From a virus (taxonomy: Duplodnaviria > Caudoviricetes): a stretch of DNA of 52,218 bases. The position numbers and the translations under genes were made by a program. The stretch spans positions 1 to 52,218 of the IMG/VR virus record IMGVR_UViG_3300033142_001318, one strand, 5' to 3'. Positions 2-28,411 of this stretch are shown in pieces. Numbering within the stretch: the first letter of the stretch is position 1; each line of letters starts with the position of its first letter. The notes below the pieces were generated by a model. That model saw nothing but the letters and a program-made list of their open reading frames with translations. It did not search any database and was not told the origin of the DNA.

Positions 2-157
2 ACTGTGTGGGATTCTAAAACTAAGAAGAAGAAAAAGAAGGAAGCAGAAGACGAGGAAGAAACCACAAAGAGGGAACTTGATAAGTGGTCTATCGATGCC
101 CGGAACAAGATTCTTGGTGAACTGGAACAGATTTATGTTACAGGAAATATGAAATGA
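2..157 (+). CDS. 3' end of an upstream gene (possibly the portal protein, by position)
   Basis: Open frame TVWDSKTKKKKKKEAEDEEE...IYVTGNMK*, whose TGA overlaps the ATG at 154; identity inferred only from gene order. Confidence 0.45.
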   Translation, partial: TVWDSKTKKKKKKEAEDEEETTKRELDKWSIDARNKILGELEQIYVTGNMK

Positions 158-728
158 TTGAAATAAATTTGCACAAACTTGGATCTGAAATTGGTACGCA
201 TAAAGGACCAGTACAGGTTACCCGTGGTGGTAAAACGTTTACACAGATGAGACGGTTAGGAACGAAGAAAAAAGATATATATCCAGTGAGACAACCAGAA
301 AAAGATATAACACAGGTTGTGGCAGGTAAAACTTATACTGGAAAATTATATCACTCCACATCATTAAAAAATGCTGAAAAGATATCGAAAGAAGGATTCA
401 AGACAAAAGGGAAATTAACAGATAGGTATACCCCCGAACAAAGACAAGGTGCACAGACGTGGTCCAAGTACGGATTTATCTATTTTAATAATGATATGGA
501 AGATACAAGTAGATATGGTGATGCTACTTTTGGGCTATTGATAAACACGGATTTAGTAGTCCCGAAGTTGAAAAACTATATGCGGAACGAGAAGGAAAGC
601 ATGATGAAACAATGACGAATCTCGTTGTTAAAGAATTCAATAAGAAATATGATGGTATGATTGGACTGCCTGGTGATATTGTAATAACTAATCCAAATAT
701 AATAAAAAATATTAAAAGGATTAAATAA
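154..728 (+). pseudogene. Tagged ADP-ribosyltransferase-like protein, split by a -1 frameshift near 522-535
   Basis: N-terminal IEINLHKL and GTHKGPVQVTRGGKTF modules; ART-like LYHSTS..GF..IYF..A/TxxYG motifs in 154-615; the -1 frame (open 522-728) supplies KKYDGMIGLPGDIVITNPNIIK*, a typical ART C-terminal strand. Confidence 0.6.
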
Positions 729-732
729 AAAT

Positions 733-1308
733 ATGACCATAGAAATAAATCTCCACAAGCTCGAACGTGGCACACACGAAGGTGTGGTCACCGTCCGTCG
801 TGGTGGTAAAGTGTTCCAACGTAAACAACGTGTAGGTAAGAAAGAACCTGATGTGAAACCGGTACCATCAACGGAACTCACGATGGATTGTCTAGAGGAT
901 ATAAAATCTAAAGATGTGAAAGCGATAGATTTCGTGGTAGACCATGGGTGGAACGCAGAAAAATCACGATTATTTAGTAATTTTGTATCAAATGATAGTT
1001 TTGTATTTATGGAAAATGATAAAATCTCTGGTATAAGTGATCTCAGGATGAGATATGACAAAACGCTAATGTTATCACTTCTTGAAATTAATCCGGATAC
1101 ACAACGTCAAGGGAAAGGCGTGTCAGCGATGCGACAAATCGTTAGATATGCAATGGAGAATGACGCTAAAGAGATATCATTACAATCAATGGACGCAGAT
1201 TCCGATAAATTCTATGAAGCTATCGGGATGGAAAATAAAGGAAAAATCTTTATGACAAGTTTTGTCGGGAGTAAAGAATGGATGAAAGAGTTTATAAAGG
1301 CAAAATAG
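733..1308 (+). CDS. Tagged GNAT-family acetyltransferase
   Basis: N-terminal shared tag; acetyl-CoA motif A QRQGKG; motif B SDKFYEAIGM. Confidence 0.8.
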   Translation: MTIEINLHKLERGTHEGVVTVRRGGKVFQRKQRVGKKEPDVKPVPSTELTMDCLEDIKSKDVKAIDFVVDHGWNAEKSRLFSNFVSNDSFVFMENDKISGISDLRMRYDKTLMLSLLEINPDTQRQGKGVSAMRQIVRYAMENDAKEISLQSMDADSDKFYEAIGMENKGKIFMTSFVGSKEWMKEFIKAK

Positions 1309-1917
1309 ATCTTAAGGACACCCGAAATATGATTGAAATAGACATCAATAAATTAGAAGTCGGTACACATAAGGGGCCGGTGAAGGTTACCCGTGGTGGT
1401 AAAACGTTTATCCAACAACGACGTTTAGGTCAAAAGGAGAAAGTAAAAGAGAGTTCCGGTATCGAAATGAAAGCCTTGAAGGAAGCAAACGTTAAAGGTA
1501 TGGAACCCATGAATTTTATAAAATCTTTAGGATGGGATTATAAACATTCGTATTTCTTTGCTGGTAGTGTCCCGGATTATGTAAATATATGTACAGATAA
1601 TGATAAAATCGTTGGTATTACTAGTTATAATGTAGATGACGATAATAATTTTCACATTAATATTATTGAAGTAAATGGTTATAATCGCCGGCAGGGGGTC
1701 GGTGTAAAAATTATGGGTGAGTTGATCAAAGAAGCGATGAAAGCCGGTGCGGAGACTGTAAAATTGGAATCACTGGATGAAGACAGTGATAAGTTCTATG
1801 ACGCGATCGGGATGACAAAGTTAGTAATACCAAAAGCAACACAATCAGACATGAGTAGATATGAAGGTGATAAAGAATGGATGAAAGCGTTTATAAAGGC
1901 AAAATAGATCTTAAGGA
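1272..1917 (+). repeat. 47-bp direct repeat (1272-1318 and 1871-1917) spanning the ends of both GNAT genes
   Basis: taaagaatggatgaaag(a/c)gtttataaaggcaaaatagatcttaagga, one mismatch. Confidence 0.9.
1329..1907 (+). CDS. Tagged GNAT-family acetyltransferase (paralogue of 733-1308)
   Basis: Start reassigned to ATG 1329 (MIEIDINKL); RRQGVG motif A; SDKFYDAIGM; same C-terminus KEWMKxFIKAK. Confidence 0.8.
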   Translation: MIEIDINKLEVGTHKGPVKVTRGGKTFIQQRRLGQKEKVKESSGIEMKALKEANVKGMEPMNFIKSLGWDYKHSYFFAGSVPDYVNICTDNDKIVGITSYNVDDDNNFHINIIEVNGYNRRQGVGVKIMGELIKEAMKAGAETVKLESLDEDSDKFYDAIGMTKLVIPKATQSDMSRYEGDKEWMKAFIKAK

Positions 1918-1967
1918 AGCGAGGAAGTACGATCCACTTGTAGGATCAGAAAAAGAGGATGTAACTA

Positions 1968-2402
1968 ATGGTAGTAGAGAAACGAGGTAATAAGTGGTGT
2001 ACAATTTCGTGTCATCATGACCCTGGGGCTATTATTGCTTGTTTTCCTACGAAAGAAGCTGCAATGGCACAACATCGTGCTATCGAAGCGAGTAAACACG
2101 CTACAAAACTTGAAATAGACGTAGATGAACTTACAAAGTCGTCTAAACATTACGAATCTATCTCAGTAACCCGGGGTGGACGACAATTTAACCGGAGACA
2201 ACTCGTAGGATCCGACCTAAAACCACAGTGGAACAAAAAGATCAATCAAACCTGCACAGATATGGACACACAAGCGAAAAAGGGGATGTATTCCGTAACG
2301 TTAGCATCCGGACTTCGTCAGATGGCTAAACAGGCAGGACGACTATTAGAAATCGAGAAATTTCTATATGATGTGAAGAAACAGGCAGAATCTAATAAGT
2401 GA
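1968..2402 (+). CDS. Head-associated hypothetical protein with internal tag
   Basis: N-terminal KRGNKWC..CFPTKEAAMAQHRAIE module, then LEIDVDELTKS and SVTRGGRQFNRRQLVG. Confidence 0.65.
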   Translation: MVVEKRGNKWCTISCHHDPGAIIACFPTKEAAMAQHRAIEASKHATKLEIDVDELTKSSKHYESISVTRGGRQFNRRQLVGSDLKPQWNKKINQTCTDMDTQAKKGMYSVTLASGLRQMAKQAGRLLEIEKFLYDVKKQAESNK

Positions 2403-2454
2403 TTAAATGTTAAAGATGATAATTAATTATAATAATATAAATGGAGGGAAATAA

Positions 2455-2808
2455 ATGGCATTTGAAACTATTGATAACAGACAGTGGCGTATGCAGGTCG
2501 CCCAAAGAAAGGTTGAGGTCACGATCGTGACCGGGAAGACCGGATCGACTGATGTAGCGGTTAATGGGGAATTACTTAATTACGTAATCGTAGCACCTGA
2601 TCTTGCAACCGATGCAGATTTTACATTATCCTTCGTTAATGAAGATAGCGAAACGACATATTCCAAGAGTAGTATCAGTGATAACACAACTACGGCAGTA
2701 TTAGTATCAGCAACACCGGTACCGATGTCCGGTACGATTACAGTTACGTGTTCATGTACGACGGACCAGACGGATAAATCATTTACAATATATCTTTATT
2801 ATAAATAA
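2455..2808 (+). CDS. Small beta-rich putative virion protein
   Basis: GGAGG RBS; T/S/V-rich composition with alternating beta-strand pattern. Confidence 0.55.
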   Translation: MAFETIDNRQWRMQVAQRKVEVTIVTGKTGSTDVAVNGELLNYVIVAPDLATDADFTLSFVNEDSETTYSKSSISDNTTTAVLVSATPVPMSGTITVTCSCTTDQTDKSFTIYLYYK

Positions 2809-2823
2809 ATGTGGTGTTATTGA

Positions 2824-3186
2824 ATGTCCGAATGGAATCAGAAGGAATTATTAGGTAGTCCACGGTATAGCGCGAAGTCTACCGACCCGATTACGGGTAC
2901 GACTGTTAACACTTCTACTGCGGTGGTCGATTTGGATACCCGGGCATTTAACGACAGTGTACACATAATTGCTAACACCGGATCCAATACACTAAATTAT
3001 AGTGTGGAAGTCCGGAGTGATTATGCTAATGGGGATAATTTTGTTCTGTATTCTAACGCTGTTGTAGCAGGTGATGAGGACGAACTTATATTAGTACATC
3101 ATGCAAGAGTTTTTATATTTATACAGTCCGATTTAACAGATCACCACACGACATTCTCTATAACTTCAATCGGGAGTACAACATAA
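2824..3186 (+). CDS. Small beta-rich putative virion protein
   Basis: Operon-coupled ORF, beta-sandwich-like composition. Confidence 0.55.
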   Translation: MSEWNQKELLGSPRYSAKSTDPITGTTVNTSTAVVDLDTRAFNDSVHIIANTGSNTLNYSVEVRSDYANGDNFVLYSNAVVAGDEDELILVHHARVFIFIQSDLTDHHTTFSITSIGSTT

Positions 3187-3590
3187 TGGTAAAAATAAAA
3201 ATAGAATTAGATTTAGAGGATCTTATAAATGTGAATCAGGCATCTGATATTACACGATCACATCTTCCAACCGTTCCGGCTGATTATGACACACAACACG
3301 GTCTTAATAATCAAAAGATTTGGTATAAGACGTACGAAAAGGGTATGCGATGGGTTACGATGGAAGGTAGAGGTGAAACACCCTTAGATTGTACAGACAT
3401 AATTATACGGATGTCACCCGGGAATACGGATGTATTGGAAGACGAGATGACGTGTCAACACCCCGAATATGGCGAAGTTTCTTACGAAGATTACCCGGAA
3501 AATATGTACATTCAAACCGAGAGACTCCGACAATTAGAGGACGTGGGTTATGTGGAAGGTGGGGATAATCTCGTACCGATGGTGGTTTGA
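3186..3590 (+). CDS. Hypothetical protein with N-terminal IELDLEDL tag
   Basis: Start overlaps the previous stop; tag-like motif at residues 6-13. Confidence 0.6.
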   Translation: MVKIKIELDLEDLINVNQASDITRSHLPTVPADYDTQHGLNNQKIWYKTYEKGMRWVTMEGRGETPLDCTDIIIRMSPGNTDVLEDEMTCQHPEYGEVSYEDYPENMYIQTERLRQLEDVGYVEGGDNLVPMVV

Positions 3591-3968
3591 ATGGACCCCG
3601 GAATGATGGCATATCCGCCTAATATAGAGATAAAGAGATTTATAGTTACGACGTCTGCTGAGACGGATAGTCTAACACCCAAAGCAGGTAAAAGAATCCA
3701 CGTAATAGGACACACGACGTCTCAAGTCGTAGGGAGTAAAGTTACGGCTACGGTAAAAGCGACTTTAGCGTTTGGTAGAGATGGTGCCGATGTACCAGAT
3801 AAAATATTAGATAGTAATAATCAAATTCATATTAGTAGTCATACGAGTTCTCATGTAGATGATGTAAATATATTAGGTGATGTGGACGAGATTATACAAT
3901 TAAAAAATACTACATTCAGTTCCGGAAGTGTTACCACCCGAGCAACAATTTATTATCTTGAAGAATAA
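3591..3968 (+). CDS. Small beta-rich putative virion protein
   Basis: Abuts the previous gene; beta-strand-rich. Confidence 0.55.
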   Translation: MDPGMMAYPPNIEIKRFIVTTSAETDSLTPKAGKRIHVIGHTTSQVVGSKVTATVKATLAFGRDGADVPDKILDSNNQIHISSHTSSHVDDVNILGDVDEIIQLKNTTFSSGSVTTRATIYYLEE

Positions 3969-3990
3969 TTATAATTATAAGGAGTTATAA

Positions 3991-4329
3991 ATGGGAAAAA
4001 GGTTTGTCGAGCTTTCAGGTCGAGGTAGTGGTATACCCGATTACGCCCCCGAGACGATAGGTTCCGGGCGTCAGGTTATACCTACTGCCGGAACTGCGGT
4101 ACAACTTGCGAGCACATTGACGATAGGTGGAATAATCATTGTGGCAGAGTTTACTAACACCGGCATTGTCTGTGTGGGAGATCTCAATGTTGTTGCGGCG
4201 GAACTTACACGGCAGGGTGTTCCACTGAATGCCGGTGATGGCGTGATAATATGTATCGACAATATTTCCAAAATATGGATAGATTCTACATCTGATGGTG
4301 ATGGTGTGACTTATACGATGGTGGGTTAG
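3991..4329 (+). CDS. Small beta-sandwich putative virion protein
   Basis: AGGAG RBS; pattern A..TN.G.VCVGD...GVPLNAGD.....IDNISKIWID. Confidence 0.6.
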   Translation: MGKRFVELSGRGSGIPDYAPETIGSGRQVIPTAGTAVQLASTLTIGGIIIVAEFTNTGIVCVGDLNVVAAELTRQGVPLNAGDGVIICIDNISKIWIDSTSDGDGVTYTMVG

Positions 4330-4332
4330 ATT

Positions 4333-5982
4333 ATGGATCTAGATTACATAAAAGCACCGGATGCACCACCCGAATATGTGGCTGAGGTGAGTCCGAGTTT
4401 CCATTATAATTCGTTTAAACGGCAATTCCCGACCATACAGGAAGCCATAGACTTCATGCATGGAAAATACGGTGCACATACAGGTGTTATTATAAATGTA
4501 CACAGTGGTTATTATACAGAACAAATCCACAGTTACCCGGGGTATTTTATAAGGGGGATTGCACGACACGCCCCAACCAACGAATTACGTCCGGTAACAC
4601 TTTATAATACCGGTCTTGACCCGGCGCATTATCCGATGCGGGCAGAAGCTAATGATTTTTATCTTATGCAGAATATAAATATTATAACCGATGCAGGTGG
4701 TACATTTGGTAAACTCGGACAAGATAGGTACGACGGGGTCTATTTCGGTGGTGGATCATTTACAGAATCAACTTTTGACACGGTTGTATATAATACGTGG
4801 ATGGATTGTTCATTCGTAAACTCTAAAGCTTTTAATCTTACAGGTACGAACGTAGCTAATGCCCGTTATTTAGTGTTACTCAATTGTTGGTTCGGGTGGT
4901 GGCAAAACCCGGTACTCACATCGACACACACCGGTGGTTATGCAGTTTTTGATATGGACGGCGGGCACCTTGCGTTTACTAATTTGACGTTAGGTGGCGA
5001 TTGGTACCATTTTGCCAAAAATTATCATAGTTTCGGTGCTTATAGGCACGTATATGATACTACAGCCGGGATTGCATACAGAGGTGTGACGGTATCAAAC
5101 GGAATTCATTTCGTGTCTGACCCGGGAGTATTCCAGATGGCGAACTGTGATATGTTGGACTCCGCCGAAATGCCTTTACCTGCGGATCAGTGTGATATTA
5201 CGGCTGATGTCCCAATTACAGATGCCATATTGGTAGGAAATCAAATGTTTAATGGTATCTGTGGCGAGATCCAGATAACAGATCATGTGAAGAACGTTGG
5301 TGGAGACGCTTCAAATAAATATTTTGATCTTGTGGAAGCTGTTAAATCTGTAACAGGTGAAGATATCATAATGTTAGGTGAAGACCAGATAGATGTACCG
5401 AAACTCACAATGCCGGCATCAGGGACGGTTCAGATCAGGGGACGTTCACTGTACGGAATTACATTCACAGGTGATATTGCAGATTTGACAGCGAATGATA
5501 TATTAATATTTGATGCGTGTGGAGCGATTACGGGAGGAACCGTAAACGTGAACGGGAATAATGCTGAACTTCACATGCATGGGTGTATATGTTCAGAAAA
5601 TGCATTCGAGATTCTTGTGACTTCCGGTACGGATGCTATTGTACATATACGTGATTCTTCACTTACAGGGAGTGCGGGAAAATCTGCTCTTCAGATTAAT
5701 AGTATAGATCCATCGTATAAGGTTTCGTTCTCACGTCTTACAGGTGCAACTGGAGAGCCAGCTGTGGAATTTACCGTGGAAGCAGACGACAAGTTTAAAG
5801 CGAAATTTTCAACGTTATTACATGGGGATGGTGGGGCGAATTATCCGGTTATTTATACTGGTGCAGGAAAAATTTCAATCGCCGTATATAATTCGGGACT
5901 TAATTCTCCGTGGAATGCAGCTGAATTTGCAAATAGTATCGGAGGGGCTAATAATGCCACAGATATAGCTATCGATTTCTAA
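4333..5982 (+). CDS. Parallel beta-helix (pectin-lyase-like) spike/adhesin
   Basis: FPTIQEAID..IINVHSGYYTEQI cap motif and a second YFDLVEAVKS..DIIML cap, suggesting two beta-helix units. Confidence 0.6.
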   Translation: MDLDYIKAPDAPPEYVAEVSPSFHYNSFKRQFPTIQEAIDFMHGKYGAHTGVIINVHSGYYTEQIHSYPGYFIRGIARHAPTNELRPVTLYNTGLDPAHYPMRAEANDFYLMQNINIITDAGGTFGKLGQDRYDGVYFGGGSFTESTFDTVVYNTWMDCSFVNSKAFNLTGTNVANARYLVLLNCWFGWWQNPVLTSTHTGGYAVFDMDGGHLAFTNLTLGGDWYHFAKNYHSFGAYRHVYDTTAGIAYRGVTVSNGIHFVSDPGVFQMANCDMLDSAEMPLPADQCDITADVPITDAILVGNQMFNGICGEIQITDHVKNVGGDASNKYFDLVEAVKSVTGEDIIMLGEDQIDVPKLTMPASGTVQIRGRSLYGITFTGDIADLTANDILIFDACGAITGGTVNVNGNNAELHMHGCICSENAFEILVTSGTDAIVHIRDSSLTGSAGKSALQINSIDPSYKVSFSRLTGATGEPAVEFTVEADDKFKAKFSTLLHGDGGANYPVIYTGAGKISIAVYNSGLNSPWNAAEFANSIGGANNATDIAIDF

Positions 5983-5999
5983 TAAAATAGAAGGTAATA

Positions 6000-6161
6000 A
6001 TGATAAATATAAATGAAATAAGGATTAGATCACTTGTGGGTATCGTAAGTATGTCCATAGTAATGATTATATTGAATATCCAACAAGTAGAGGTCTTACT
6101 CGGATACATGGGCGCGTGTACAGCAGCAATCTTACTGGATAAACCAGATACAGACGTTTAA
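6000..6161 (+). CDS. 53-aa protein with two hydrophobic segments (holin-like candidate)
   Basis: Not in the ORF track; GAAGGT RBS; MININEIRIRSLVGIVSMSIVMIILNIQQVEVLLGYMGACTAAILLDKPDTDV. Confidence 0.5.
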   Translation: MININEIRIRSLVGIVSMSIVMIILNIQQVEVLLGYMGACTAAILLDKPDTDV

Positions 6162-6298
6162 GGTGTTAAATTGTTATCACAAGCACTCATAATAATGGAA
6201 TCAATAATACTGACCACAAGTACAAAAGATCCACGACGTACAGAATTGATTACAATTAGAGATATTATAATAAATTATATGGAGAGTGAGGATATAGA

Positions 6299-6703
6299 AT
6301 GAAAGATTTTAGTAATTATATATTAATAGTAGATGACAGTGTGGCGTATATGCGTCTATTATTAGAATCTATGGTCGATAATGGCAATGGGAAACTCTCC
6401 GGGCATATTCTTTTTGCAGAGGATGCCGACAAAGGTTTTGAATTGTACGTATTATATCGTCCTATGATTGTTCTTATGGATGTTCGAATGCCCGGGAAAT
6501 CCGGGATCGATGCAGCTAAGATGATTGTGGATTATGATAAATCTGCAAATATAATGCTGGTTACGAATTATAGTAATGATCCTGGAATTAGTAAGGCTAT
6601 ATCAGACAAATTAGTTAATGGAAAGATTGATAAAGGAGTTGGGGTTGGTATTATCGCCGCTATGGTAACAATAATACTTAAAACTGCTGGTAAATTGTTA
6701 TGA
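6299..6703 (+). CDS. Response regulator receiver (CheY-like) with C-terminal hydrophobic helix
   Basis: ILIVDDS, phosphoacceptor LMDVRMPG, conserved T (LVTN) and K (IDKG); tail VGVGIIAAMVTIILK. Confidence 0.9.
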   Translation: MKDFSNYILIVDDSVAYMRLLLESMVDNGNGKLSGHILFAEDADKGFELYVLYRPMIVLMDVRMPGKSGIDAAKMIVDYDKSANIMLVTNYSNDPGISKAISDKLVNGKIDKGVGVGIIAAMVTIILKTAGKLL

Positions 6704-6817
6704 TGGGTAATGTTAGAAAGGGATTGGATGATATCTATGGCTATGGAGTACTTTTAGATATTTCCAAATTTATGGAAGAACAATATAAAAATAGATATAA
6801 GATTAGGGATGATATAA

Positions 6818-7555: not shown

Positions 7556-7559
7556 TTAC

Positions 7560-7763
7560 ATGATTGAAATAGACACTGATGAACTGAATAAATTTCGATT
7601 ACCGGGTTCAAAAGATAAAAAGAAACGGAAAAAGAAAGCTAAATCCAAATCTGTGAAGGAGGTTATAAGTGATGCGTATGAGGAGAAGGAAGATGAGAAG
7701 AAATTCCCATGGGAATCCACGTTACCAAAACATGGTGTTCAAAGTATATATACTGTAAAGTAA
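7560..7763 (+). CDS. Small basic tagged protein
   Basis: GAGGTGA RBS before ATG 7560; MIEIDTDELNK followed by RLPGSKDKKKRKKK. Confidence 0.65.
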   Translation: MIEIDTDELNKFRLPGSKDKKKRKKKAKSKSVKEVISDAYEEKEDEKKFPWESTLPKHGVQSIYTVK

Positions 7764-7769
7764 TTATCG

Positions 7770-8561
7770 GTGAATTTAATGGATGATATATTAGAAAAAG
7801 GTGCTGTGATAGACTTTATAGCGAAATTATTAAAGTCTATAGACATACCGGGTTTCCGGGTACTACTTACGAGTAGGGTCATAAACGCCTTCACGTCGTC
7901 ACACGAGGACACCAACGAAGAATACAACCTCGGTAGGACAAAAGCAGATCCCTTAGCACTTGATTATCTCCGTGAGCGTGAATTAATTCTTTCAGATAAA
8001 ACTAAATCGAAATTGGATGGTGATCTTAAGTTTGAGATTCTGGAGGCAATGAAGGCTAATGAATCGATCTCAGAGATTACAAACCGTTTAGATGGGATAT
8101 TTACAGATATGTTACCGTGGCAACTCGAGAGAATCGCCCGGTCGGAGGTTGTAAATGCCCAGAACGCCGGTCGTCAATCGGCATACGAAAAATCCAGTGT
8201 GGTTAAATATAAAATGGTAGTCGGTGCAAAGGATAAACGACTATGCGCATTATGCCGACGAATGCAAGGTCAAATTCAACCTGTAGATAAACCATTCCGA
8301 GACCCGGAAAATCCGACTAAGACGTGGATGTATCCTATATTCCATGCGAATGGACGGTGTTCAACAGTACCTCTGATACGACTTCCGGACAATGTGATTA
8401 CTGTGGGTGGACAGATGTATGCTGGAGATAAGAAACTCGGGAAGATCGAAATTAATATTGAAAAATTATTAAAGTCCGAAGATCCACAGACACATGAAGT
8501 TTGGGTCAAGCAAACAGCGAAACGAAAAGGGCATTGGCGAACTATTAAAAATAAAATATAA
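7770..8561 (+). CDS. Head morphogenesis protein (MuF / SPP1 gp7 family)
   Basis: RIARSEVVNAQNAG, CALC and PIFHANGRCS motifs; C-terminal IEINIEKLLKSE tag. Confidence 0.85.
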   Translation: MNLMDDILEKGAVIDFIAKLLKSIDIPGFRVLLTSRVINAFTSSHEDTNEEYNLGRTKADPLALDYLRERELILSDKTKSKLDGDLKFEILEAMKANESISEITNRLDGIFTDMLPWQLERIARSEVVNAQNAGRQSAYEKSSVVKYKMVVGAKDKRLCALCRRMQGQIQPVDKPFRDPENPTKTWMYPIFHANGRCSTVPLIRLPDNVITVGGQMYAGDKKLGKIEINIEKLLKSEDPQTHEVWVKQTAKRKGHWRTIKNKI

Positions 8562-8573
8562 AGGTGATTAAAT

Positions 8574-8732
8574 ATGACAGAAAAAGGTGAACCGAAACGA
8601 GATGGTTCCGGTGGTGGAACGCGCGCTAACTATAACCGTGGTGGGTGTCAGGATGGCGAGACGTGTGATGTCCTGGGAAATGTAATAAGAGAGCAATATC
8701 CGAGACGAGGTAATAGGAATAATGGCAGGTGA
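8574..8732 (+). CDS. 52-aa Gly/Arg-rich protein
   Basis: AGGTGA RBS; PKRDGSGGGTRANYNRGGC; not in the ORF track. Confidence 0.45.
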   Translation: MTEKGEPKRDGSGGGTRANYNRGGCQDGETCDVLGNVIREQYPRRGNRNNGR

Positions 8733-8919
8733 AGGTAGGAAAGAACCGGAAAGTATTGAAACGTTTTCGGTTGATGATTATAAAGATAAATTGATCTCGG
8801 AAGGATATTCGGATTCTACGGCATTGATGCTTGCAGAGAAAAAACGAGATAAATTATCGGAACAAGCAATGAAAATGGAAAAATCAGAATTGATAGAAAT
8901 TGATTTATCAAAACTTTAA
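8722..8919 (+). CDS. Small protein ending in the tag (MEKSELIEIDLSKL)
   Basis: GAGGT RBS; C-terminus matches that of the prohead protease. Confidence 0.65.
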   Translation: MAGEGRKEPESIETFSVDDYKDKLISEGYSDSTALMLAEKKRDKLSEQAMKMEKSELIEIDLSKL

Positions 8920-8945: not shown

Positions 8946-8978
8946 GGATGAGAGCTAATGTACTTATGGTAAGTATAT

Positions 8979-10001: not shown

Positions 10002-10943
10002 ATGGAGGAACAAGAAGAAAATAAAATCACAGATAACGAATTCAATTATCATGGTGAATTGACTAAAATAGAGAAATCAAATGATGGTAATATCTATATC
10101 GCCGGAATTTGTACAACAGAAAAAATGGATCATGACGGTGAAATCGTAGATCTGAACGAGGTCCGGAAGGTGTGGGATGATTACATGACCAACCCCGTAC
10201 TAAAATACATGCACGGTAAGGACACATCGAACATGGCTGCTATTGGGGTTGTGGTGCCTTCTTATACAGATTCGACAGGTAAGATGTGGAAGACCGAATT
10301 TACTGATGAGGGACCGTTTATTGTATGTAAGATATCAAATGCCCCGGATACGGAAAGTATCCGAACAAAAGTTGAAGAGGGGATCGTGAAGGGCTTTTCA
10401 ATTGGTGGGAGAGCAAAAAGAGTAAAAACATTCGATCCTACACTACAAAAAGACGTAAATCGTGTTATAACAACCCGGATCTCAGAAATAAGTCTCGTAG
10501 ATCTACCAGCAAATCCTGACTCGTTCTTTTCAGTACTAAAAGCAGCATGTGTGGGAGATAACTGTCCCATGAATGACGACACAGAAACCATCGAGAAGGG
10601 TGAAGGCAAAGCCCCTAAAACGTGGTGGGACAACTGTATGGGAACCGCAAAGGGGATCCCGGGTATGAAAGATGCATCAGCATTCTGTGGTTGGATGTGG
10701 GCACACGGTAAGGAAGATTTCGGACCACAACGGAGCGAAATTGGTAAGATTGAGGACGATCCGATTGTAGACCAAGCGGTGGCAAAATTTGAAGAGTTAA
10801 TTGTGGAAAATGCCACATTGAAAGACAGATTAGAGAAACTCGAAACGGGTTTGGATAACATGGTAAAGATCGAAGAGGAAGATCTCACCGTCCAAAAATC
10901 TGAAAACAGTAATCTAATCGAAATTAATTTACAGGAACTATAA
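10002..10943 (+). CDS. HK97-type prohead protease with C-terminal coiled coil and tag
   Basis: DHDGEIV, catalytic H (YMHG), GFSIGG, EISLVDLPANP; ends QKSENSNLIEINLQEL*. Confidence 0.9.
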   Translation: MEEQEENKITDNEFNYHGELTKIEKSNDGNIYIAGICTTEKMDHDGEIVDLNEVRKVWDDYMTNPVLKYMHGKDTSNMAAIGVVVPSYTDSTGKMWKTEFTDEGPFIVCKISNAPDTESIRTKVEEGIVKGFSIGGRAKRVKTFDPTLQKDVNRVITTRISEISLVDLPANPDSFFSVLKAACVGDNCPMNDDTETIEKGEGKAPKTWWDNCMGTAKGIPGMKDASAFCGWMWAHGKEDFGPQRSEIGKIEDDPIVDQAVAKFEELIVENATLKDRLEKLETGLDNMVKIEEEDLTVQKSENSNLIEINLQEL

Positions 10944-11042: not shown

Positions 11043-11567
11043 ATGATAGGAGGAAAAACTATGGAACAAGAAGAAGGAATTGTTCGGCTAGAAGTAGACG
11101 AACTTACGAAATATATCGAAGATACCGTTACTAATATGGTCGAGAAGCAGGAGACAGTTGAAAAACTCGAGGATTACGACAGACTCGTAGCTGAGCTCAA
11201 GGATATGCGAAAGAAGATCGAAGATCTTGAAGCAGCGGCAAAGGCTAACGTGAAGAGTATGAAGACAGGTACCGAGACATCATATAAGTCAGAGGGTGAT
11301 GTAGAAGATCCTGATACTGTGGAGAAGGCTAAAAAGAAGGAAAAGGAACCAAAGAAGAAGTATGATGACGAGGGTAACGAAATCACTGAAGAGGCGGATA
11401 TGACCGTCAAAAAGATGGAAGAGTTAGAGGCTGAGATTGCGGAACTAAAGGCGAGCCCTCTATATAAGGCACAGCAGGACGAGGGTACAGTCGAGAAGAC
11501 TGAGTCTACCGAGACACCGACGGGTATACTGTCAGGTGTAATCGCAGCACATTACGGAGGTAATTAA
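11043..11567 (+). CDS. Capsid scaffolding protein (start could be 11061)
   Basis: Highly charged coiled coil lying between the protease and the capsid gene. Confidence 0.75.
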   Translation: MIGGKTMEQEEGIVRLEVDELTKYIEDTVTNMVEKQETVEKLEDYDRLVAELKDMRKKIEDLEAAAKANVKSMKTGTETSYKSEGDVEDPDTVEKAKKKEKEPKKKYDDEGNEITEEADMTVKKMEELEAEIAELKASPLYKAQQDEGTVEKTESTETPTGILSGVIAAHYGGN

Positions 11568-11568: not shown

Positions 11569-12618
11569 ATGGCAAAAGATGGGTGGGGAAATGGTGGAGA
11601 AATCGACCATGAATCCCTTTATAAGATGAGTTTCGGTGAACTCCCGGATGAGAGTATCTTCGAAGATGCAATGAATGGTGTACACACGTTCGCAAAGGGT
11701 GAGAAACTTGTGACACAAACCGGAGAAGGCGAACTAGCGAAGGCTGTTAATGTGGGTGCCGCATCCGGTGCCGCAGGGTATGCGTATACCCCGATTGTGT
11801 GGGATCAGGCAGTAATTGATATCACACGGAGAATGACCCCTCTAATTGGTCTAATCCCGAAGGTGACCAATAAGGGTAAAGTTGCGCAGTATTATCGTGT
11901 TACCGCAAGAGGAGCTGCAACGTGGGGCGCCGAGGATCCAGCACTTAATGAGACGGATGATACGAAGGAAGAGGCGAGTGAAGCAATCAGATATCTACGT
12001 GTCACCGGGCGTGTAACTGGTGTTGCACAGATCGCGGGCGCTCACTTCGAGAGTTCAATGCAGAGAGAAGTTCTTAATAAGACACAATCAATGAATGAAG
12101 CACTTGAGGCTGCTATTCTGACAGGAAACAACGCTACGGACCAGTACCAGCATGATGGACTTCAACAACTTCTAACGTCTAATTCATCAAGTCAGGGTGG
12201 AGCTATCACTCTATCTGCTGTAAGAAAGCTTGTAAGTGATTGTTTTGTTGCAAAAGGTGCACCAAATTTGATCGTAACAGATCCTTACACAGCAGATGAT
12301 CTTGTTGAGCAGATTATGGACTACACAAGATATGTTGATCCTAATGTAACACTTGCATGGGGACTTCAACTACCATCTGTTCAGACAGTAGTTGGTAGGG
12401 TTCCAATTCTGGCAAGTCAGTTTATGCCGAATACGAGCACAGAAAGACGTCTGTTCTGTATTAACACCAACTTTATCCAGCAGAGAATTCTGAAGGATAT
12501 CACGTTCGAAAGACTGGCGAAGACAGGAGATTCTGAGAAGTTCTTCCTATCAACGTACAGGACGATGGTTAACAAATTCCCTGAAGGTATGGGCCAACTT
12601 TACGAAATATCGGACTAA
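11569..12618 (+). CDS. Major capsid protein, HK97 fold
   Basis: Follows protease and scaffold; AKA.. GYAYTPIVWD..I, TPLIGLIP, E.AILTG, DGL, GRVPILASQFMP patterns. Confidence 0.85.
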   Translation: MAKDGWGNGGEIDHESLYKMSFGELPDESIFEDAMNGVHTFAKGEKLVTQTGEGELAKAVNVGAASGAAGYAYTPIVWDQAVIDITRRMTPLIGLIPKVTNKGKVAQYYRVTARGAATWGAEDPALNETDDTKEEASEAIRYLRVTGRVTGVAQIAGAHFESSMQREVLNKTQSMNEALEAAILTGNNATDQYQHDGLQQLLTSNSSSQGGAITLSAVRKLVSDCFVAKGAPNLIVTDPYTADDLVEQIMDYTRYVDPNVTLAWGLQLPSVQTVVGRVPILASQFMPNTSTERRLFCINTNFIQQRILKDITFERLAKTGDSEKFFLSTYRTMVNKFPEGMGQLYEISD

Positions 12619-19097: not shown

Positions 19098-19126
19098 AAA
19101 TTTAAATATAATGGAGGAATAATAAT

Positions 19127-19747: not shown

Positions 19748-19811
19748 ATGACCAAAAGGTTTATATACTATTAGTACCAATGTCATATTACATAGTAGGA
19801 AATACTATGTA
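19748..19811 (+). promoter_or_regulatory. BRE-TATA promoter with a downstream inverted repeat
   Basis: atgaccaaaaggtttatata is identical to 8926-8945; tacatagta-ggaaa-tactatgta at 19789-19811. Confidence 0.65.
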
Positions 19812-19834
19812 TAATATTTAGAAGGTTAAACAAA

Positions 19835-20176: not shown

Positions 20177-20188
20177 ATGGAGTAATAT

Positions 20189-21886: not shown

Positions 21887-21887
21887 T

Positions 21888-22541
21888 ATGACAAATATAG
21901 ATATAGAAAACTATGAAACTTATCATAGTAATTTAAAAGAACAATTTCATGAATTTGCACAGAGAAAATCAGACTTTCAAGTCGAAAAGTTTACAGCGTG
22001 TTCTGATGGTACGATACCATCACATCAATATCGGCATACACTTGTCCAGATTCGTGTTGCACTTACTGAACTAAAAAGGCGGATTGTTGATCGAGAACGT
22101 CAAATCCGGGTTCGGGATCGTGCAATAGAAAATAAATCTGAAGACTGGGATTTAGATGTAGCAGGAGCGGAGACTGAAATTGAATCTCTCACCTATGATA
22201 TTGAATCAAAACTTATTGAGGTTAACGGTTACGCTGCAATTTTGGAACAACTTGAGAAAGAAAATGGTAAACCCTTTACGAATGCCGACTTTCAGGCGGA
22301 TGAACCAGAATATTGGAAACGTAGATTTGCTAGACAAATGCATGATTCCGTAATAGACAGACAGACCGGGTGTGGTCAAGGTAACCTTATTGCACTTCGT
22401 GAAGCATGTATAGATCCAATAATTCCTGGATCTCCGAATCAATTGGAGGTACTACCTATGGATGTTAGAGTTTTGGCATTAATAGCAGAAGGTGTCGATC
22501 TAAAAATGCTTGAGGAAGGCGAAGAGGAAGATGGTATATAA
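21888..22541 (+). CDS. Coiled-coil protein, likely partner/chaperone of the propeller fibre
   Basis: Start reassigned to ATG 21888; coiled coil followed by EPEYWKRRFARQ. Confidence 0.6.
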   Translation: MTNIDIENYETYHSNLKEQFHEFAQRKSDFQVEKFTACSDGTIPSHQYRHTLVQIRVALTELKRRIVDRERQIRVRDRAIENKSEDWDLDVAGAETEIESLTYDIESKLIEVNGYAAILEQLEKENGKPFTNADFQADEPEYWKRRFARQMHDSVIDRQTGCGQGNLIALREACIDPIIPGSPNQLEVLPMDVRVLALIAEGVDLKMLEEGEEEDGI

Positions 22542-23502
22542 GAGATATACATCAAAATATGTCTCAGATATGTTACGGGTGTGTCGAGCAAATAGATTTG
22601 TTGGTGTAATTATGTTACCTGTTGATGTTATTGTCTATGGAAACTTTTATGGTTGGTTTGGTGGAGGAACAACTGGAGCATATCACGATATCATTGATCG
22701 TATTACCCTTACAGATGATACAACAAATGCAATAGATAGATGTGATTTGACAGTGGGAAGATCACATCTTGCAGCATTCGCAGACAATACGTATGGTTGG
22801 TTCGGTGGTGGAACAATTGGAGCATATCTTAATATCGTTGATCGTATTATCCTTGCAAATGATACAGCAAATGCAATAGATAGATGTGATCTGAGTACAT
22901 CGAGATATGGTCTTGCAGCATTCACAGACGATACTTATGGTTGGTTCGGTGGTGGAGTAGTAGCGAATAATGTTGATCGTATTATCCTTGCAAATGATAC
23001 CGTAAATGCAATAGATAGATGTGATCTGATTGGATATAGATATAATATTGCAGCATTCACAGACAATACGTATGGTTGGTTCGGTGGTGGTATTATTTAT
23101 GCTGGTACTGCAAAATATGATGTAATAGATCGTATTACCCTTGCAGATGATACCACAAATGCAATAGATAGATGTGATTTGACAGTGGCAAGAGATGGTC
23201 TTGCAGCATTCACAGATTTAACTTACGGGTGGTTTGGTGGTGGTCTTGCAGCAGTATATAGGACCAAATGTGTTGATCGTATTACCCTTGCAAATGATAC
23301 CGTAAATGCAATATATAGATGTGATCGGAGTATAGCGAGGGAGGGAGTTGCCGCATTCACAGATGATACTTATGGTTGGTTTGGTGGTGGAAATGGGGAT
23401 GATGATACCATTGATCGTATTACCCTTGCAGATGATACCACAAATGCAATAGATAGATGTAATCTGACTGTAGGAAGAGAAGCAACAGCAGCATTCCATT
23501 AG
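22531..23502 (+). CDS. Kelch-like beta-propeller paralogue 2
   Basis: Six YGWFGGG...DRITLADDTTNAIDRCDL repeats; start at ATG 22531. Confidence 0.8.
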   Translation: MVYKRYTSKYVSDMLRVCRANRFVGVIMLPVDVIVYGNFYGWFGGGTTGAYHDIIDRITLTDDTTNAIDRCDLTVGRSHLAAFADNTYGWFGGGTIGAYLNIVDRIILANDTANAIDRCDLSTSRYGLAAFTDDTYGWFGGGVVANNVDRIILANDTVNAIDRCDLIGYRYNIAAFTDNTYGWFGGGIIYAGTAKYDVIDRITLADDTTNAIDRCDLTVARDGLAAFTDLTYGWFGGGLAAVYRTKCVDRITLANDTVNAIYRCDRSIAREGVAAFTDDTYGWFGGGNGDDDTIDRITLADDTTNAIDRCNLTVGREATAAFH

Positions 23503-23516
23503 GAAATGTATAAAAT

Positions 23517-23627
23517 ATGAATAAAATCACAATCGATAAGATGAAGTCCCGGTTTAGTGAGTTCATTCAAAGAAAGTCCGATTTTCAGATTAAGAAGTTT
23601 GTTGGATGGAGTATAAATGGTATTTAG
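23517..23627 (+). pseudogene. Truncated copy of the 21888-22541 gene
   Basis: MKSRFSEFIQRKSDFQIKKF compared with LKEQFHEFAQRKSDFQVEKF. Confidence 0.7.
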
Positions 23628-24648
23628 AAAATTAACCCCGGCACGGGTATATGAGTTGTATTATGCCGGATATTATAGTCCTACTGTATTATTATCTGTG
23701 AATCTTATACTTGAGAAATATTGGGGTACCTCTTTTCTAACAGTGGATATGATGGTGAGGTTGCCACCTGGTATTTATGGTTGGTTTACCGGAGGGTATA
23801 TAGGTAGTGGTACAATCGTGAATATAATAGATCGTATAACGTTAGCTGATGATACAACTAATGCAATCGACAGATGTGATCTAACTACTGAAAAATCGTC
23901 GATGGCAGATTTTACAAATGGTATTCATGGTTGGATAGGTGGTGGAAATATTTCTAGTGGTATTTCAGATACGGTAGAGAGGATAACGTTAACTGATGAT
24001 ACAACTAATGCAATCGACAGATGTAATTTAGTGGCATCTCGTAGTGCGTTAGCAGGTGTTACAGATAATATCCATGGTTGGTTTGCTGGTGGTGATTATG
24101 GTTTACCGTGTGATATAGTAGATCGTATTACATTAGCAGATGATACGACTGATGCACTTGATAGATGTAACTTGAGTACTGGCAGATGGGCATTAGCAGG
24201 CTTTACAGATTCTACTCATGGGTGGTTCATGGGCGGAGTGGGATACCAACCGGAGGATATAGTAGATCGAATAACATTTGCAGATGATACAACTAATGCG
24301 ATTGATAGATGCAATTTAACTATACAAAAATATTGGCACGCCGCCTTTGCAGATTCAACTTATGGGTGGTCTGTTGGTGGGATGGGGATGGCTGGTGTAG
24401 TTGATATAATAGATCGTATAATGTTAGCTGATGATACAACTAATGCAATCGACAGATGTGATCTAACTATTGCTCGATATGGCACTTCCGCTTTTACAGA
24501 TTTAACTTACGGGTGGTTTGGTGGTGGATACGCTACAATATCCTACGATATAGTAGATCGAATTACATTAGCAGATGATACGACTAATGCTATCGATAGA
24601 TGTGATTTAACTGTTGGAAGATCAAGATTAGCAGGATTCACGGGGTAA
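23617..24648 (+). CDS. Kelch-like beta-propeller paralogue 3
   Basis: Six repeats of the same family. Confidence 0.8.
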   Translation: MVFRKLTPARVYELYYAGYYSPTVLLSVNLILEKYWGTSFLTVDMMVRLPPGIYGWFTGGYIGSGTIVNIIDRITLADDTTNAIDRCDLTTEKSSMADFTNGIHGWIGGGNISSGISDTVERITLTDDTTNAIDRCNLVASRSALAGVTDNIHGWFAGGDYGLPCDIVDRITLADDTTDALDRCNLSTGRWALAGFTDSTHGWFMGGVGYQPEDIVDRITFADDTTNAIDRCNLTIQKYWHAAFADSTYGWSVGGMGMAGVVDIIDRIMLADDTTNAIDRCDLTIARYGTSAFTDLTYGWFGGGYATISYDIVDRITLADDTTNAIDRCDLTVGRSRLAGFTG

Positions 24649-24650
24649 TC

Positions 24651-25595
24651 ATGGTATATAGAAAATTAACACTATATCAAATGTGTGGGATGTTTGGGAA
24701 TGGTGAAATGGTAGAAAATTACTATGGTTGGTTTTGTGGTGGTACAACTGGATCACCGTCCAGTACAGTAGACCGAATCACATTAGCAGACGATACCGCA
24801 GCTGCAATAGATAGATGTACGATATCTGTTGCGAGGTATCAAGTCTCTGGTTTCACAGATTTGGTACACGGTTGGATAGCCGGAGGTATAAGTGAGGGTG
24901 GATCTCATTCTAACATAATAGATCGGATCGAATTAGCACAGGATACTACAAACGCTATAGATAGATGTAATTTATCTCTTGGGAGATATGGCACTTCCGC
25001 TTTTACAGATTTAACTTACGGGTGGTTTGGTGCTGGATTCGCTACAATATACTACGATATAGTAGATCGAATTACATTAGCAGATGATACAACGGATGCA
25101 ATAGATAGATGTAATCTAACTACCGCAAGAAGATATGCTAGCGCATTCTGTGATGATACGTATGGTTGGTTCGGTGGCGGATATAATGGTTCTATATTAG
25201 GTGTGATAGATCGTATTACATTAGCAGATGATACGACTGATGCACTTGATAGATGTGATTTGAATGTACCGAGGTACGGTTTAACGGGTTTTACAGATGA
25301 TATCTATGGTTGGTTTGCTGGTGGTGATTATGGTCTACCGTGTGATATAGTAGATCGGATGACATTAGCAGATGATACGAATAATGCTATCGATAGATGT
25401 GATCTGAGTACGATTAGATATCACATGACGTCATTCACGGATCTGAATTATGGTTGGTTCGGTGGCGGATATTGGAGTACATATTCTGATACTGTGGATA
25501 GAATCACGTTGAATAACGATACCGTGAATGCAATGGATAGATGTGATCTAACTGTCGCGAGATATGGACTTACTGGATTTGCAAATCGGGAGTAA
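24651..25595 (+). CDS. Kelch-like beta-propeller paralogue 4
   Basis: Six repeats of the same family. Confidence 0.8.
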   Translation: MVYRKLTLYQMCGMFGNGEMVENYYGWFCGGTTGSPSSTVDRITLADDTAAAIDRCTISVARYQVSGFTDLVHGWIAGGISEGGSHSNIIDRIELAQDTTNAIDRCNLSLGRYGTSAFTDLTYGWFGAGFATIYYDIVDRITLADDTTDAIDRCNLTTARRYASAFCDDTYGWFGGGYNGSILGVIDRITLADDTTDALDRCDLNVPRYGLTGFTDDIYGWFAGGDYGLPCDIVDRMTLADDTNNAIDRCDLSTIRYHMTSFTDLNYGWFGGGYWSTYSDTVDRITLNNDTVNAMDRCDLTVARYGLTGFANRE

Positions 25596-25598
25596 TAA

Positions 25599-26303: not shown

Positions 26304-26316
26304 GAGGTTATAAAAT

Positions 26317-27267
26317 ATGGTAAATATTTCAGATAATATAAAGGAATGGGATCGTAATGAGACTATCCGGGTGACTAATACATTTAGAGATGAGAACGAT
26401 GAATTATATAATCCGGATACTATAGAATTACATATATATGATCCCAGAGATGCTTTATACTTAGTCGTAAATACTACTGATGGAGATATTGGAAAATTAT
26501 CTCTCGGTGTTTGGGCTTATGATTTTGACATTCCAGCAGATGGTGCTACGGGTTGGTGGATTGTAAAATGGACGGCTATGGTAACAGGTAGTCAGAATGA
26601 TGTTACAAAGGCACAATTTAAGGTTCGTGATCCTGAGCGGAAACTCTACACAGAACCCGAGTATGTGTATAGTCGTGCCGGACAGGATGAGAATTTCGTT
26701 AGTAGGAATGACGTTGGTTATTTTATAACGGAAGCAATGAAAGAAGTGGATGATTTAATGGGTAAGGTTTTCGATTATTCAACAAAGGTAACGGAATGGT
26801 TTGATACTACACAACCAAACCCCAATACGAAGGTTACGAAGTTATTTTTACGGTTTACACCGATGCGGACAGTGACGTCTGTGGAAGAATATGATACGTA
26901 CGGTGATTTAGAGAAGACTTACACAGATAGTGATTACTATGTAGATTTGGACACCGGGATGTTAGGACTTCGTACGTTAGATTTCGGTCATCAGGAACGC
27001 CGGGTCAAGGTCGTTTATAATTACGGATTTGATACCGTTCCTGCTGATATACAGCAATTAACGACTGTCATAGCGGCTATAAAAGTGTATTTAAATCACA
27101 TAGGAAACTCGGTTGATGATGTAACGTCATTTAGTGCTTGTGGAATTAGTATGGGTGTCGGAGAACCATATACTGCTTCAGAAAGAGCGTTACAAGATCT
27201 TACAAAGGAAATGACACGAATTATAGGTTCCATTGGACGTGTTCGTCAATCAATTTTTATAGTATGA
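26317..27267 (+). CDS. Head-tail adaptor with N-terminal Ig-like domain
   Basis: C-terminal L...P...VTSV...DYYVD...G.L...VKVVYNYGF..VPADI pattern. Confidence 0.7.
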   Translation: MVNISDNIKEWDRNETIRVTNTFRDENDELYNPDTIELHIYDPRDALYLVVNTTDGDIGKLSLGVWAYDFDIPADGATGWWIVKWTAMVTGSQNDVTKAQFKVRDPERKLYTEPEYVYSRAGQDENFVSRNDVGYFITEAMKEVDDLMGKVFDYSTKVTEWFDTTQPNPNTKVTKLFLRFTPMRTVTSVEEYDTYGDLEKTYTDSDYYVDLDTGMLGLRTLDFGHQERRVKVVYNYGFDTVPADIQQLTTVIAAIKVYLNHIGNSVDDVTSFSACGISMGVGEPYTASERALQDLTKEMTRIIGSIGRVRQSIFIV

Positions 27268-27289
27268 AATTTAATAATGGTAAAGTATA

Positions 27290-27688
27290 ATGGCACGAAT
27301 AAATTTTGGTCTTACATCTAAGTTCACACAGATGCTCAAAGATTGGGCTGGACGTACAGCAACGAAAATCACCGTAACGGAAACTATAGACGAACAAGGT
27401 AACGTCATCGACCGCTCAGAAGATGAAACCGAAATTACAGCACTAATCGGTAATCCATCTACGAACACATCACTAAATCCTCCCGGAAACTTCCAGACCG
27501 GAGATCTCTGTGCTTACACGAAAGTGGCAGACAATTTTATAGCGTTTGAACAGGTAACGCCGACGACATCTCAATATGACATCGTTCGTTACCAAGGAAC
27601 AACGTATCGTACGGAATTGATAGATTCGATTTACGATGTGGATGAGGAAAGTATCAGGGTTTTCAAACTTAAAAAGATAGCAATATAG
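27290..27688 (+). CDS. Head closure / stopper protein
   Basis: Position, size and the D.QGN...D.V.YQG..YR pattern. Confidence 0.55.
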   Translation: MARINFGLTSKFTQMLKDWAGRTATKITVTETIDEQGNVIDRSEDETEITALIGNPSTNTSLNPPGNFQTGDLCAYTKVADNFIAFEQVTPTTSQYDIVRYQGTTYRTELIDSIYDVDEESIRVFKLKKIAI

Positions 27689-27706
27689 ATAGGTGATTAT
27701 AATTAT

Positions 27707-28411
27707 ATGACAATAGAAATCAAAATAAAAGACTTACGAAAAGCCGAACGTGGTACCCATACAGGACCGGTGCAGGTAACACGTGAAGGAAAGACGTTCG
27801 TACAACAACGTCGGGTTGGTCGAAAGGACACCGGTAAGATAGCATCCCTTCCACAAGAACTTAAAGATGAGATCCTTACTTTGAGAAGACAGAATGATTC
27901 TGGTGCTAAGATCAAGACTGCGATTGAAACTATGATAAAGAATAGAATGGGTAAGTTATCATTAGGTAAGGAATTTGAAGCTAAAAGACATGAATTGACG
28001 AACAAATATGATACGGCAACCAAAGCTGGTGATAAAGAAGAAATGAAGAGATTGTGGTCAGAAATCAAATCAATGACGGATAAAGAAGAGAAATTTACTG
28101 ACTCACCAGAATTCAAATCCGGTGCCGTAACTAAAGATGGTAAACTGACAATTACAGGTCAGGCATTGGTTTCATGGGCACAAAGTAGGGGTGTCACAGG
28201 TAAAACCAGAAAAACTGTGGCACAAGTGGCAGCAGAAAAGGATAAAGAGTGGACGGAACGGTGGAATAAGCTTAATAAAGAGAAGGCAAGACTTGAAATC
28301 GAATTGAAAGAGTCGGAGAATAATGCCAGTGCGCAAAGGACGCAAAAACTCCGAATACAGGATCGGTTAGAAAATTGCCAAAATAGATTATCTCAGGCTA
28401 AGAATAAGTAG
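27707..28411 (+). CDS. Tagged basic helical protein inserted in the neck module
   Basis: MTIEIKIKDLRKAERGTHTGPVQVTREGKTFVQQRRVG, then KIASLPQELKDEI and a coiled coil. Confidence 0.75.
   Translation: MTIEIKIKDLRKAERGTHTGPVQVTREGKTFVQQRRVGRKDTGKIASLPQELKDEILTLRRQNDSGAKIKTAIETMIKNRMGKLSLGKEFEAKRHELTNKYDTATKAGDKEEMKRLWSEIKSMTDKEEKFTDSPEFKSGAVTKDGKLTITGQALVSWAQSRGVTGKTRKTVAQVAAEKDKEWTERWNKLNKEKARLEIELKESENNASAQRTQKLRIQDRLENCQNRLSQAKNK

Follow-up and report, generated by a model that had tools for sequence, protein, structure and literature searches.

HK97 gp4, an S78-family prohead protease, carries a C-terminal tail that is thought to bring the protease into the prohead; HK97 has no separate scaffold, and the gp4 tail binds the delta domain of the capsid protein. 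Encapsulin cargo-loading peptides, which are short, terminal and rich in Gly, Ser and Leu, address varied cargo into an HK97-fold shell, and in the staphylococcal phage 80alpha the capsid and scaffold proteins share an N-terminal motif that is cut by the host cysteine protease Prp, an enzyme tied to ribosomal protein bL27. To our knowledge, the choice of proteins for travel in the head is understood in only a few laboratory phages, namely T4 and P1, and by inference for MuF fusions. According to the available sections of PMC9024508, a capsid targeting sequence (CTS) is established for T4 and P1, and P1 DarB's 30 N-terminal residues are enough to load a reporter; effectors carried on MuF proteins have been established by comparative genomics (available sections of PMC5576092 and PMC5512222). 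Here we describe a short peptide motif, A, and a module of about 40 residues that it leads, on proteins encoded with the head genes of the tailed-virus record IMGVR_UViG_3300033142_001318 (Duplodnaviria; Caudoviricetes), where the motif may well act as a portable tag for the procapsid. The window is the whole stretch analysed, a linear IMG/VR record of 52,218 bases with a completeness estimate of 59%.

Motif A comprises 8 residues with the consensus I-E-I-[D/N]-L-x-K-L, and the second part of the module, B, is a basic beta-hairpin of the form ERGTHxGxVKVTRGGKTFxRKQRVGxKE. As in the T4 CTS and P1 DarB, a short peptide at the extreme N-terminus is common to several differing proteins encoded with head genes, and just as the cargo of the T4 CTS includes the ADP-ribosyltransferase (ART) Alt, the putative module cargo includes ARTs; no sequence similarity is claimed for this likeness. 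Unlike the T4 CTS, the tag of the window has two parts, A and the hairpin B, and tags of this type also lie on the C-terminal end of the protease, after MuF and between polyprotein domains. The effector repertoire is that of MuF polymorphic toxins and polyvalent proteins (ARTs, metallopeptidases, kinases and 2H proteins), with ART-PolyVal and Kinase-PolyVal matching module proteins. Unlike MuF polymorphic toxins, however, the MuF protein of the window has no effector, and the effectors are separate genes that open with the module, which is a linker in fusions. The new elements are a two-part module in place of a covalent MuF fusion, its presence at the protease end and, as a variant, at the scaffold start, and its position at the head of more than 100 protein clusters. 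The available sections of PMC5576092 hold no text on a linker, cleavage, a junction, a conserved motif or archaea, and neither such a linker nor a free-standing tag appears in the available sections of PMC5576092, PMC5512222 and PMC9503650. No description of such modules was found in the parts of the literature covered, supplementary domain tables lying outside that scope.

Motif A in the window and on the prohead protease

The original prediction, made from the letters of the window, had listed eleven tag strings, and 11/11 coordinates translate as given there. Across 78 greedily chosen open reading frames (ORFs; 16,762 aa) there are 7 strict matches to IEI[DN]...L, compared with a mean of 0.053 in 300 within-protein shuffles, which reached a maximum of 2 copies and never 7 (0/300); a looser pattern gives 10 copies against 0.28 expected from the shuffles. 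Five proteins begin M(T)-IEI (genes at 154, 733, 1329, 7560 and 27707, with A from residue 2-3), a sixth (3186) has the motif from residue 6, and two end exactly in A, namely the protease and the 65-residue product of 8722-8919. In the ORFs open from 1278 and 7536, an ATG lies immediately ahead of the motif, past the stop codon of the gene before, so that 1329 and 7560 are the likely starts. The terminal position noted for the motif was borne out for 8/10 copies, which lie at most 5 residues from a protein end (binomial p about 2e-7, a count that uses the starts 1329 and 7560, revised in view of the motif, and in which several copies are paralogous); it did not hold for the copy in 1968-2402, which is internal (residue 48), nor for the MuF copy, which lies 30 residues from the end. 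As noted there, no clear copy was found in the minus-strand replication genes: the enrichment patterns gave none there, and a looser regular expression gave one poor string, VELDTDGI.

One copy is carried by the S78-family prohead protease (10002..10943, +), which matches Pfam Peptidase_S78_2 and S78 above the curated cut-offs (27.4 bits vs 24 and 23.3 bits vs 21, respectively) and ends exactly in A (10917-10940). A homology search with this protein gave 87 homologs, consisting of 15 unfused proteases, 57 protease-scaffold fusions and 15 others (P0046, P0055, P0075, P0076 and eleven distant ones, P0077-P0087, with different ends). Every unfused protease (15/15) ends in xEI[DN]LxxL (ExL in 13, KL in 2), the final Leu being followed by no residue in 8 of them, by one in 6 and by three in 1, and the linker ahead of the C-terminal A varies freely in length and sequence. 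Among the fusions, 0/57 end in A; their ends resemble that of the window scaffold (..AHYGGN or ..FGTGGK), and their junction carries a variant, A' (VR[LMF][EG][VP]xEL), which aligns to the string VRLEVDEL of the window scaffold. The protease bears the tag exactly when the covalent scaffold link is missing, and this complementarity is the strongest argument that A serves head incorporation. A conserved C-terminal tail on an S78 protease recalls HK97 gp4. Unlike in gp4, the tail motif here is confined to proteases that are not fused to the separate scaffold, and putative cargo proteins carry it too. A capsid-protein delta domain is unlikely here, because the Pfam SU10_MCP match of the capsid protein begins at residue 78 and the scaffold is separate.

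The scaffold protein (11043..11567, +) can be aligned to the protease-scaffold fusions over their C-terminal halves, carries A' near its N-terminal end (11082-11105) and has a conserved C-terminal end, GVIAAHYGGN. VRLEVDEL had been listed as a weaker copy of the tag; its position was correct, and the string proved to be a distinct, conserved variant, in which, across 15 sequences, V14, E20 and L21 never vary and R15 and E17 hardly do. By eye, A does not resemble the consensus of encapsulin loading peptides; it is rather the C-terminal end of the window scaffold, GILSGVIAAHYGGN, that looks closer to it. The scaffold end ..G[IV]LSGVIAAHYGGN is kept in free and fused scaffolds (window 11043-11567; P0003, others) and is likely to be the capsid-binding end. 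The fusions (P0003, others) also keep GGxTME just ahead of A', which suggests an internal start of a nested scaffold gene. As in 80alpha, head proteins here have in common an N-terminal leader of 9-14 residues with a similar hydrophobic/polar pattern; no Prp-like gene was seen in the window.

A further string, GEIDHESL in the N-arm of the capsid protein (11596-11619, +), was considered as an additional tag and rejected, as it is also conserved in the tag-free loci L009 and L010 and is probably structural. Across the capsid proteins of L003-L010 it takes the conserved form xEID[HSE]xS[LVI], and its likeness to the tag is weak.

The A+B module and its carriers

An alignable stretch of about 40 residues, with the pattern IEIxxxKL, a short spacer and GTHxGPVxVTRGGKTFxQxRRxG, is common to five window proteins (154, 733, 1329, 27707 and, from residue 48, 1968). 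The tagged proteins had been called unrelated, which is half right: these five share a homologous module, and the products of 733 and 1329 are both GNATs. The nucleotide identity between module copies is 0.41-0.73, and identical residues share identical codons in only 4/11 to 19/29 cases; these synonymous differences indicate that selection acts on the protein. No Pfam, PHROGs or NCBIfam family covers the module in the tagged proteins, the sole overlap being Tectonin at residues 6-33 of 733-1308 (E 0.067, under its cut-off). Likewise, a 45-residue module gave no tblastn match at E<=1 against 50,697 phage records, and the module profile gave only one chance-level match to PDB sequences (E 0.96).

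A profile built from the five window sequences identified 129 protein clusters at E<=1e-3, of which 38 reach E<=1e-10, among 1.84 billion representatives. Two long repeat proteins, likely false (P0153, P0162), were set aside and P0046 was inspected separately, leaving 126 examined proteins. In 92/126 the module begins within the first 4 residues; a Met immediately precedes it in 14 more, and it is internal in 20. A is conserved as well as B, as judged from 128 module copies (I 99/103, E 101/103, I 106/111, D/N 102/112, L/I 114/121). Behind the module, Pfam recognized ADPrib_exo_Tox (10), ART (7), DRAT (5), GNAT (4), ART-PolyVal (4), PI3_PI4_kinase (3), Topoisom_I (2), Phage_Mu_F (2), Kinase-PolyVal (1), 2_5_RNA_ligase2 (2H-type, 1) and ATLF (1), and most of the 126 proteins had no Pfam family. 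The same domain repertoire is ascribed to head-packaged effectors and polyvalent proteins in the available sections of PMC5512222 and PMC9503650.

Internal copies occur in natural fusions with head proteins: P0133 consists of MuF, A-B and an HExxH metallopeptidase-like domain; P0138 of MuF, A-B, a domain, A-B and a kinase-like domain; P0046 of the protease, A-B and an extension; and P0093 and others of the small domain of 8722-8919 followed by A-B. In these cases the module therefore joins a head-entering protein to an effector. Longer MuF ORFs with a module-effector fusion are present in the relatives L004 (661 aa), L005 (491 aa) and L007 (485 aa). The two proteins P0191 and P0213 have a B-only hairpin, KHYExVTVxKxGKTFQRxQxVG, between a region that is ParB-like by eye and a eukaryotic-type topoisomerase IB domain, so B can occur without A.

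When the module hidden Markov model was run over 162 loci, matches were confined to the window, L005, L006 and L007. The density of A, searched as a regular expression, was 16.8 per 1e5 aa of six-frame ORFs in close loci vs 0.82 in distant ones, and all copies in relatives were on the protease strand, except one chance string (L003). Module counts in whole related records are 2, 3, 5 and 8. The genes of the 73-kb record G004 run in the order TerL, portal, two tagged ARTs, other tagged genes, a MuF-A-B-HExxH fusion, protease, scaffold and capsid protein; a 19-kb part of this record that includes the terminase, portal and primase genes contains just 3 A copies, all in portal-adjacent cargo genes.

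In the window, the first tagged genes stand in tandem. Tagged protein 1 (154..615, +) has the module at residues 2-41, with A at 157-180, and a C-terminal domain that neither Pfam nor NCBIfam assigns to a family; the YHSTS stretch of this protein is seen again in module protein P0113. Tagged protein 2 (733..1308, +) consists of an N-terminal module (A at 739-762) and a GNAT domain (Acetyltransf_1, E 9.5e-8), an arrangement repeated in tagged protein 3 (1329..1907, +; A at 1332-1355). The next protein (1968..2402, +) has a leader of 47 residues, followed by A (2109-2132) and the B variant KHYESISVTRGGRQFNRRQLVG; its relatives, P0159 and ORF L006:1965-2273, begin directly at A. The protein encoded at 3186..3590 (+) has A only, as IELDLEDL near its N-terminal end (3201-3224), and this end is conserved in L004 (MVKLKIEIDLDDL). 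Further downstream, a small basic protein (7560..7763, +), to which a protein of L006 is similar, begins with A (7563-7586). No HExxH metallopeptidase motif was found in the window proteins.

The MuF/SPP1 gp7-like minor head protein (7770..8561, +; Phage_Mu_F in Pfam, E 7.6e-10; TIGR01641 in NCBIfam) has 263 aa and carries A (8445-8468) about 10 residues past the MuF core, followed by a degenerate B' tail. The 65-residue protein (8722..8919, +) has its A at 8893-8916, and its domain is found in relatives fused to the N-terminal end of the protease or ahead of A-B modules. This domain of about 45 residues, with the signature FxxDDYKxxLIxxGY, exists free with a C-terminal tag, on the protease N-terminal end, inside the protease linker or preceding A-B modules (window 8722-8919, L005:9875-10807, L007:9782-10723, P0012, P0093), and it behaves as a further putative carrier or adaptor. 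Finally, a tagged protein among the tail genes (27707..28411, +) has the module with the A variant IEIKIKDL (27713-27736), a TGKIASLP...SGAKIK domain and a coiled coil. The TGKIASLP...SGAKIK domain also lies behind the module in P0129, P0155, P0180, P0195 and P0204, and G004 likewise has one isolated module copy far downstream of its protease.

Structure predictions were made with AlphaFold2 (AF2). For the product of 1278-1907 (126-row alignment), B was predicted as a two-stranded hairpin with a predicted local distance difference test (pLDDT) value of about 95, and A, at about 59-70, lay outside any sheet. In the protease monomer the last 24 residues had a pLDDT below 50 and the tail was not docked on its own domain, although this model is weak (15-row alignment, mean pLDDT 65). 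The low confidence of A and of the protease tail would be in keeping with a flexible linear motif whose partner is met in trans. A co-fold of two scaffold copies with the module scored 0.00 and, run without controls, counts neither for nor against binding.

Possible functions of the tag

With moderate confidence we interpret A as a portable procapsid-addressing tag and the module-bearing proteins as head cargo. The module would mark proteins for uptake into the assembling procapsid and for delivery with the DNA, the putative cargo being ADP-ribosyltransferases, acetyltransferases, kinases and further enzymes that modify the host. Certain relatives have the effectors fused through the module to a protein that enters the head by itself (MuF, the prohead protease or the small 45-residue domain), and in the virus of the window they are separate genes, each opening with the module. 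A would act as a short flexible docking peptide that attaches protease and cargo to the scaffold core or to the shell's inner face while the procapsid is being built, in the manner of the T4 CTS and the N-terminal end of P1 DarB, and subsequent clipping of A by the S78 protease may occur. Docking, its partner, cleavage, packaging and ejection are all steps that we infer.

The original prediction of a portable address label for prohead loading is supported insofar as A is a discrete unit found on the protease C-terminal end, on MuF and on variable proteins, with a variant on the scaffold N-terminal end, and is conserved in the clade. The tagged set also agrees with its proposed role as packaged cargo, given the ART, GNAT, kinase, ART-PolyVal and Kinase-PolyVal types, the fusions to MuF and protease, and the position of the genes between portal and MuF in a relative. 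Several observations weigh against this interpretation. The analysis turned up neither a partner nor a binding site. Much of the enrichment within the window stems from paralogous N-terminal modules, and a module between polyprotein domains fits a processing site as well as an address. The window lacks a view of portal and terminase, and the head-module context of genes 154-7555 rests on the relative G004. Moreover, the genomes L003 and L004, in which protease and scaffold are fused, still carry A-tagged proteins; cargo tagging is therefore independent of the protease's own tag.

The strings themselves might be explained by chance or by plain paralogy without a common function, as the five window copies of the module form one N-terminal paralog family; since 0/300 shuffles attain the observed motif count, chance is excluded, and independent copies of A on MuF, the protease, the 65-residue protein and the products of 7560 and 3186, conserved in relatives, make this explanation scarcely tenable. 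The main rival to a tag is A, with or without B, being mainly a recognition or cleavage site of the S78 protease at the junctions of head polyproteins, the separate genes being fission products whose proteins enter the head otherwise. In natural fusions the module coincides exactly with domain junctions, two of them in P0138; carriers that are not fused end 0-3 residues past the last Leu of A, and downstream genes begin exactly at A, as fission at a processing site predicts; and Lys, which usually precedes internal copies of A at position -1, could mark the cleavage position. The T4 cleavage consensus is likewise common to protease, scaffold and internal proteins. We nevertheless consider such a role as the main function unlikely, for a peptide of 8-9 residues at the extreme N-terminal end would be pointless if it were only removed, with nothing to release, and the A at the protease C-terminal end cannot be cut after A, yet is invariant in the unfused forms despite the freely varying linker. 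In addition, the scaffold has one A' only, where a general cleavage motif would lead one to expect several sites, and the undocked protease tail in the AF2 monomer is a weak point in the same direction.

The strongly basic character of B and its confidently predicted two-stranded hairpin, together with the B variants without A beside a topoisomerase IB domain (P0191, P0213), would suit a module with a role in the cytoplasm or once delivery has taken place, for instance with B as a nucleic-acid-binding or oligomerising hairpin and with the A of the protease end as an unrelated convergent string. This appears improbable, since the conservation of A equals that of B, A recurs without B at the unfused protease end and on the small 65-residue protein, and the complementary pattern with scaffold fusions ties A to head assembly. 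Even less probable, in our estimate, is that the module is a conserved junction for cassette exchange by recombination, similar to the demarcation motifs of polymorphic toxins, with the free genes as stored MuF cassettes. The architecture does resemble that of MuF polymorphic toxins, in which a constant carrier is joined to a variable C-terminal effector (available sections of PMC5576092), and several cassettes stand in tandem 5' of MuF. The window copies, however, are 41-73% identical in DNA and have no long identical tracts for recombination, the 92 module proteins with their own Met right at the module are evidently expressed on their own, and the exchange of cassettes leaves the A of the protease and the A' of the scaffold unexplained.

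If A is indeed a tag for the procapsid, the module is a sequence-defined, conserved and portable element that appears to select head cargo in an uncultivated clade, and its carriers form a catalogue of more than 100 candidate injected effectors, including ARTs, acetyltransferases, kinases, topoisomerase IB and many unknown domains. The split of protease and scaffold is a natural experiment on tag function and, should this reading be confirmed, it would also provide a small handle by which foreign proteins could be brought into HK97-fold shells. More tentatively, and with a good deal of doubt, the copies of A on the protease, the MuF tail, the adaptor, the scaffold and dozens of effector families could constitute a universal connector that, without a covalent bond, puts a split polyvalent protein back together within the procapsid. 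All A copies would then bind one site on the scaffold core or each other, and any gene gaining the module of about 40 residues would become injected head cargo. Such plug-and-play loading in (probably archaeal) tailed viruses would be the natural viral counterpart of encapsulin loading peptides, serving more than 100 effector families.

Gene layout, capsid protein and possible host

The head and tail genes of the window are on the + strand and the replication genes on the minus strand, the latter encoding an ATP-dependent ligase, an SNF2 helicase, a methylase, an RFC-like AAA+ protein, RlaP and a fragment of a family B polymerase. The first, 5'-open ORF (2..157, +) is probably the C-terminal end of the portal gene, as a weak alignment (E 0.087 in a single comparison) places its residues 17-45 on residues 511-539 of G004's Phage_portal protein (543 aa), whose gene lies directly 5' of the tagged genes in that record. 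A 549-residue protein (4333-5982) was considered as the portal and rejected as unsupported, with no Pfam, PHROG or NCBIfam family and nothing useful in Atlas.

The major capsid protein (11569..12618, +), a candidate for the receptor shell, has the HK97 fold and belongs to the SU10_MCP family (Pfam, E 7.4e-25). Its best and sole match among phage records was the haloarchaeal virus HHTV-2, with 26% identity. An archaeal host is plausible from this capsid-protein match and from the archaeal/eukaryotic-type replication genes. A scan of genome contigs with the protease alignment gave bacterial loci only, at 24-46% identity, and tblastn of the polymerase fragment against phage records gave no match. 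A second viral contig (L002, an IMG/VR contig of 9,151 bases) has protease and capsid-protein genes whose products match their window counterparts at 100% identity.

Within the head gene block, a response-regulator receiver protein (6299-6703, +) and a PocR-sensor/HisKA protein (6818-7555, +), whose homologs are metagenome proteins, form a two-component-like pair just 5' of the tagged gene 7560 and MuF, which is unusual for a virus. Between MuF and the protease lies a gene for an HNH endonuclease-like protein (8979-9917, +; phrog_1271, E 1.1e-22). Four consecutive proteins encoded at 20189-25595 (+) have a common C-terminal string, [DN]LTV[AG]R...GF, and may be tail-fibre paralogs with a common C-terminal element, and two adjacent paralogs of 272 and 277 aa at 32379-34033 (+) are alike at their N- and C-terminal ends. 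A tRNA-Trp (CCA) gene is located at 50937-51007 (-), amid the replication genes.

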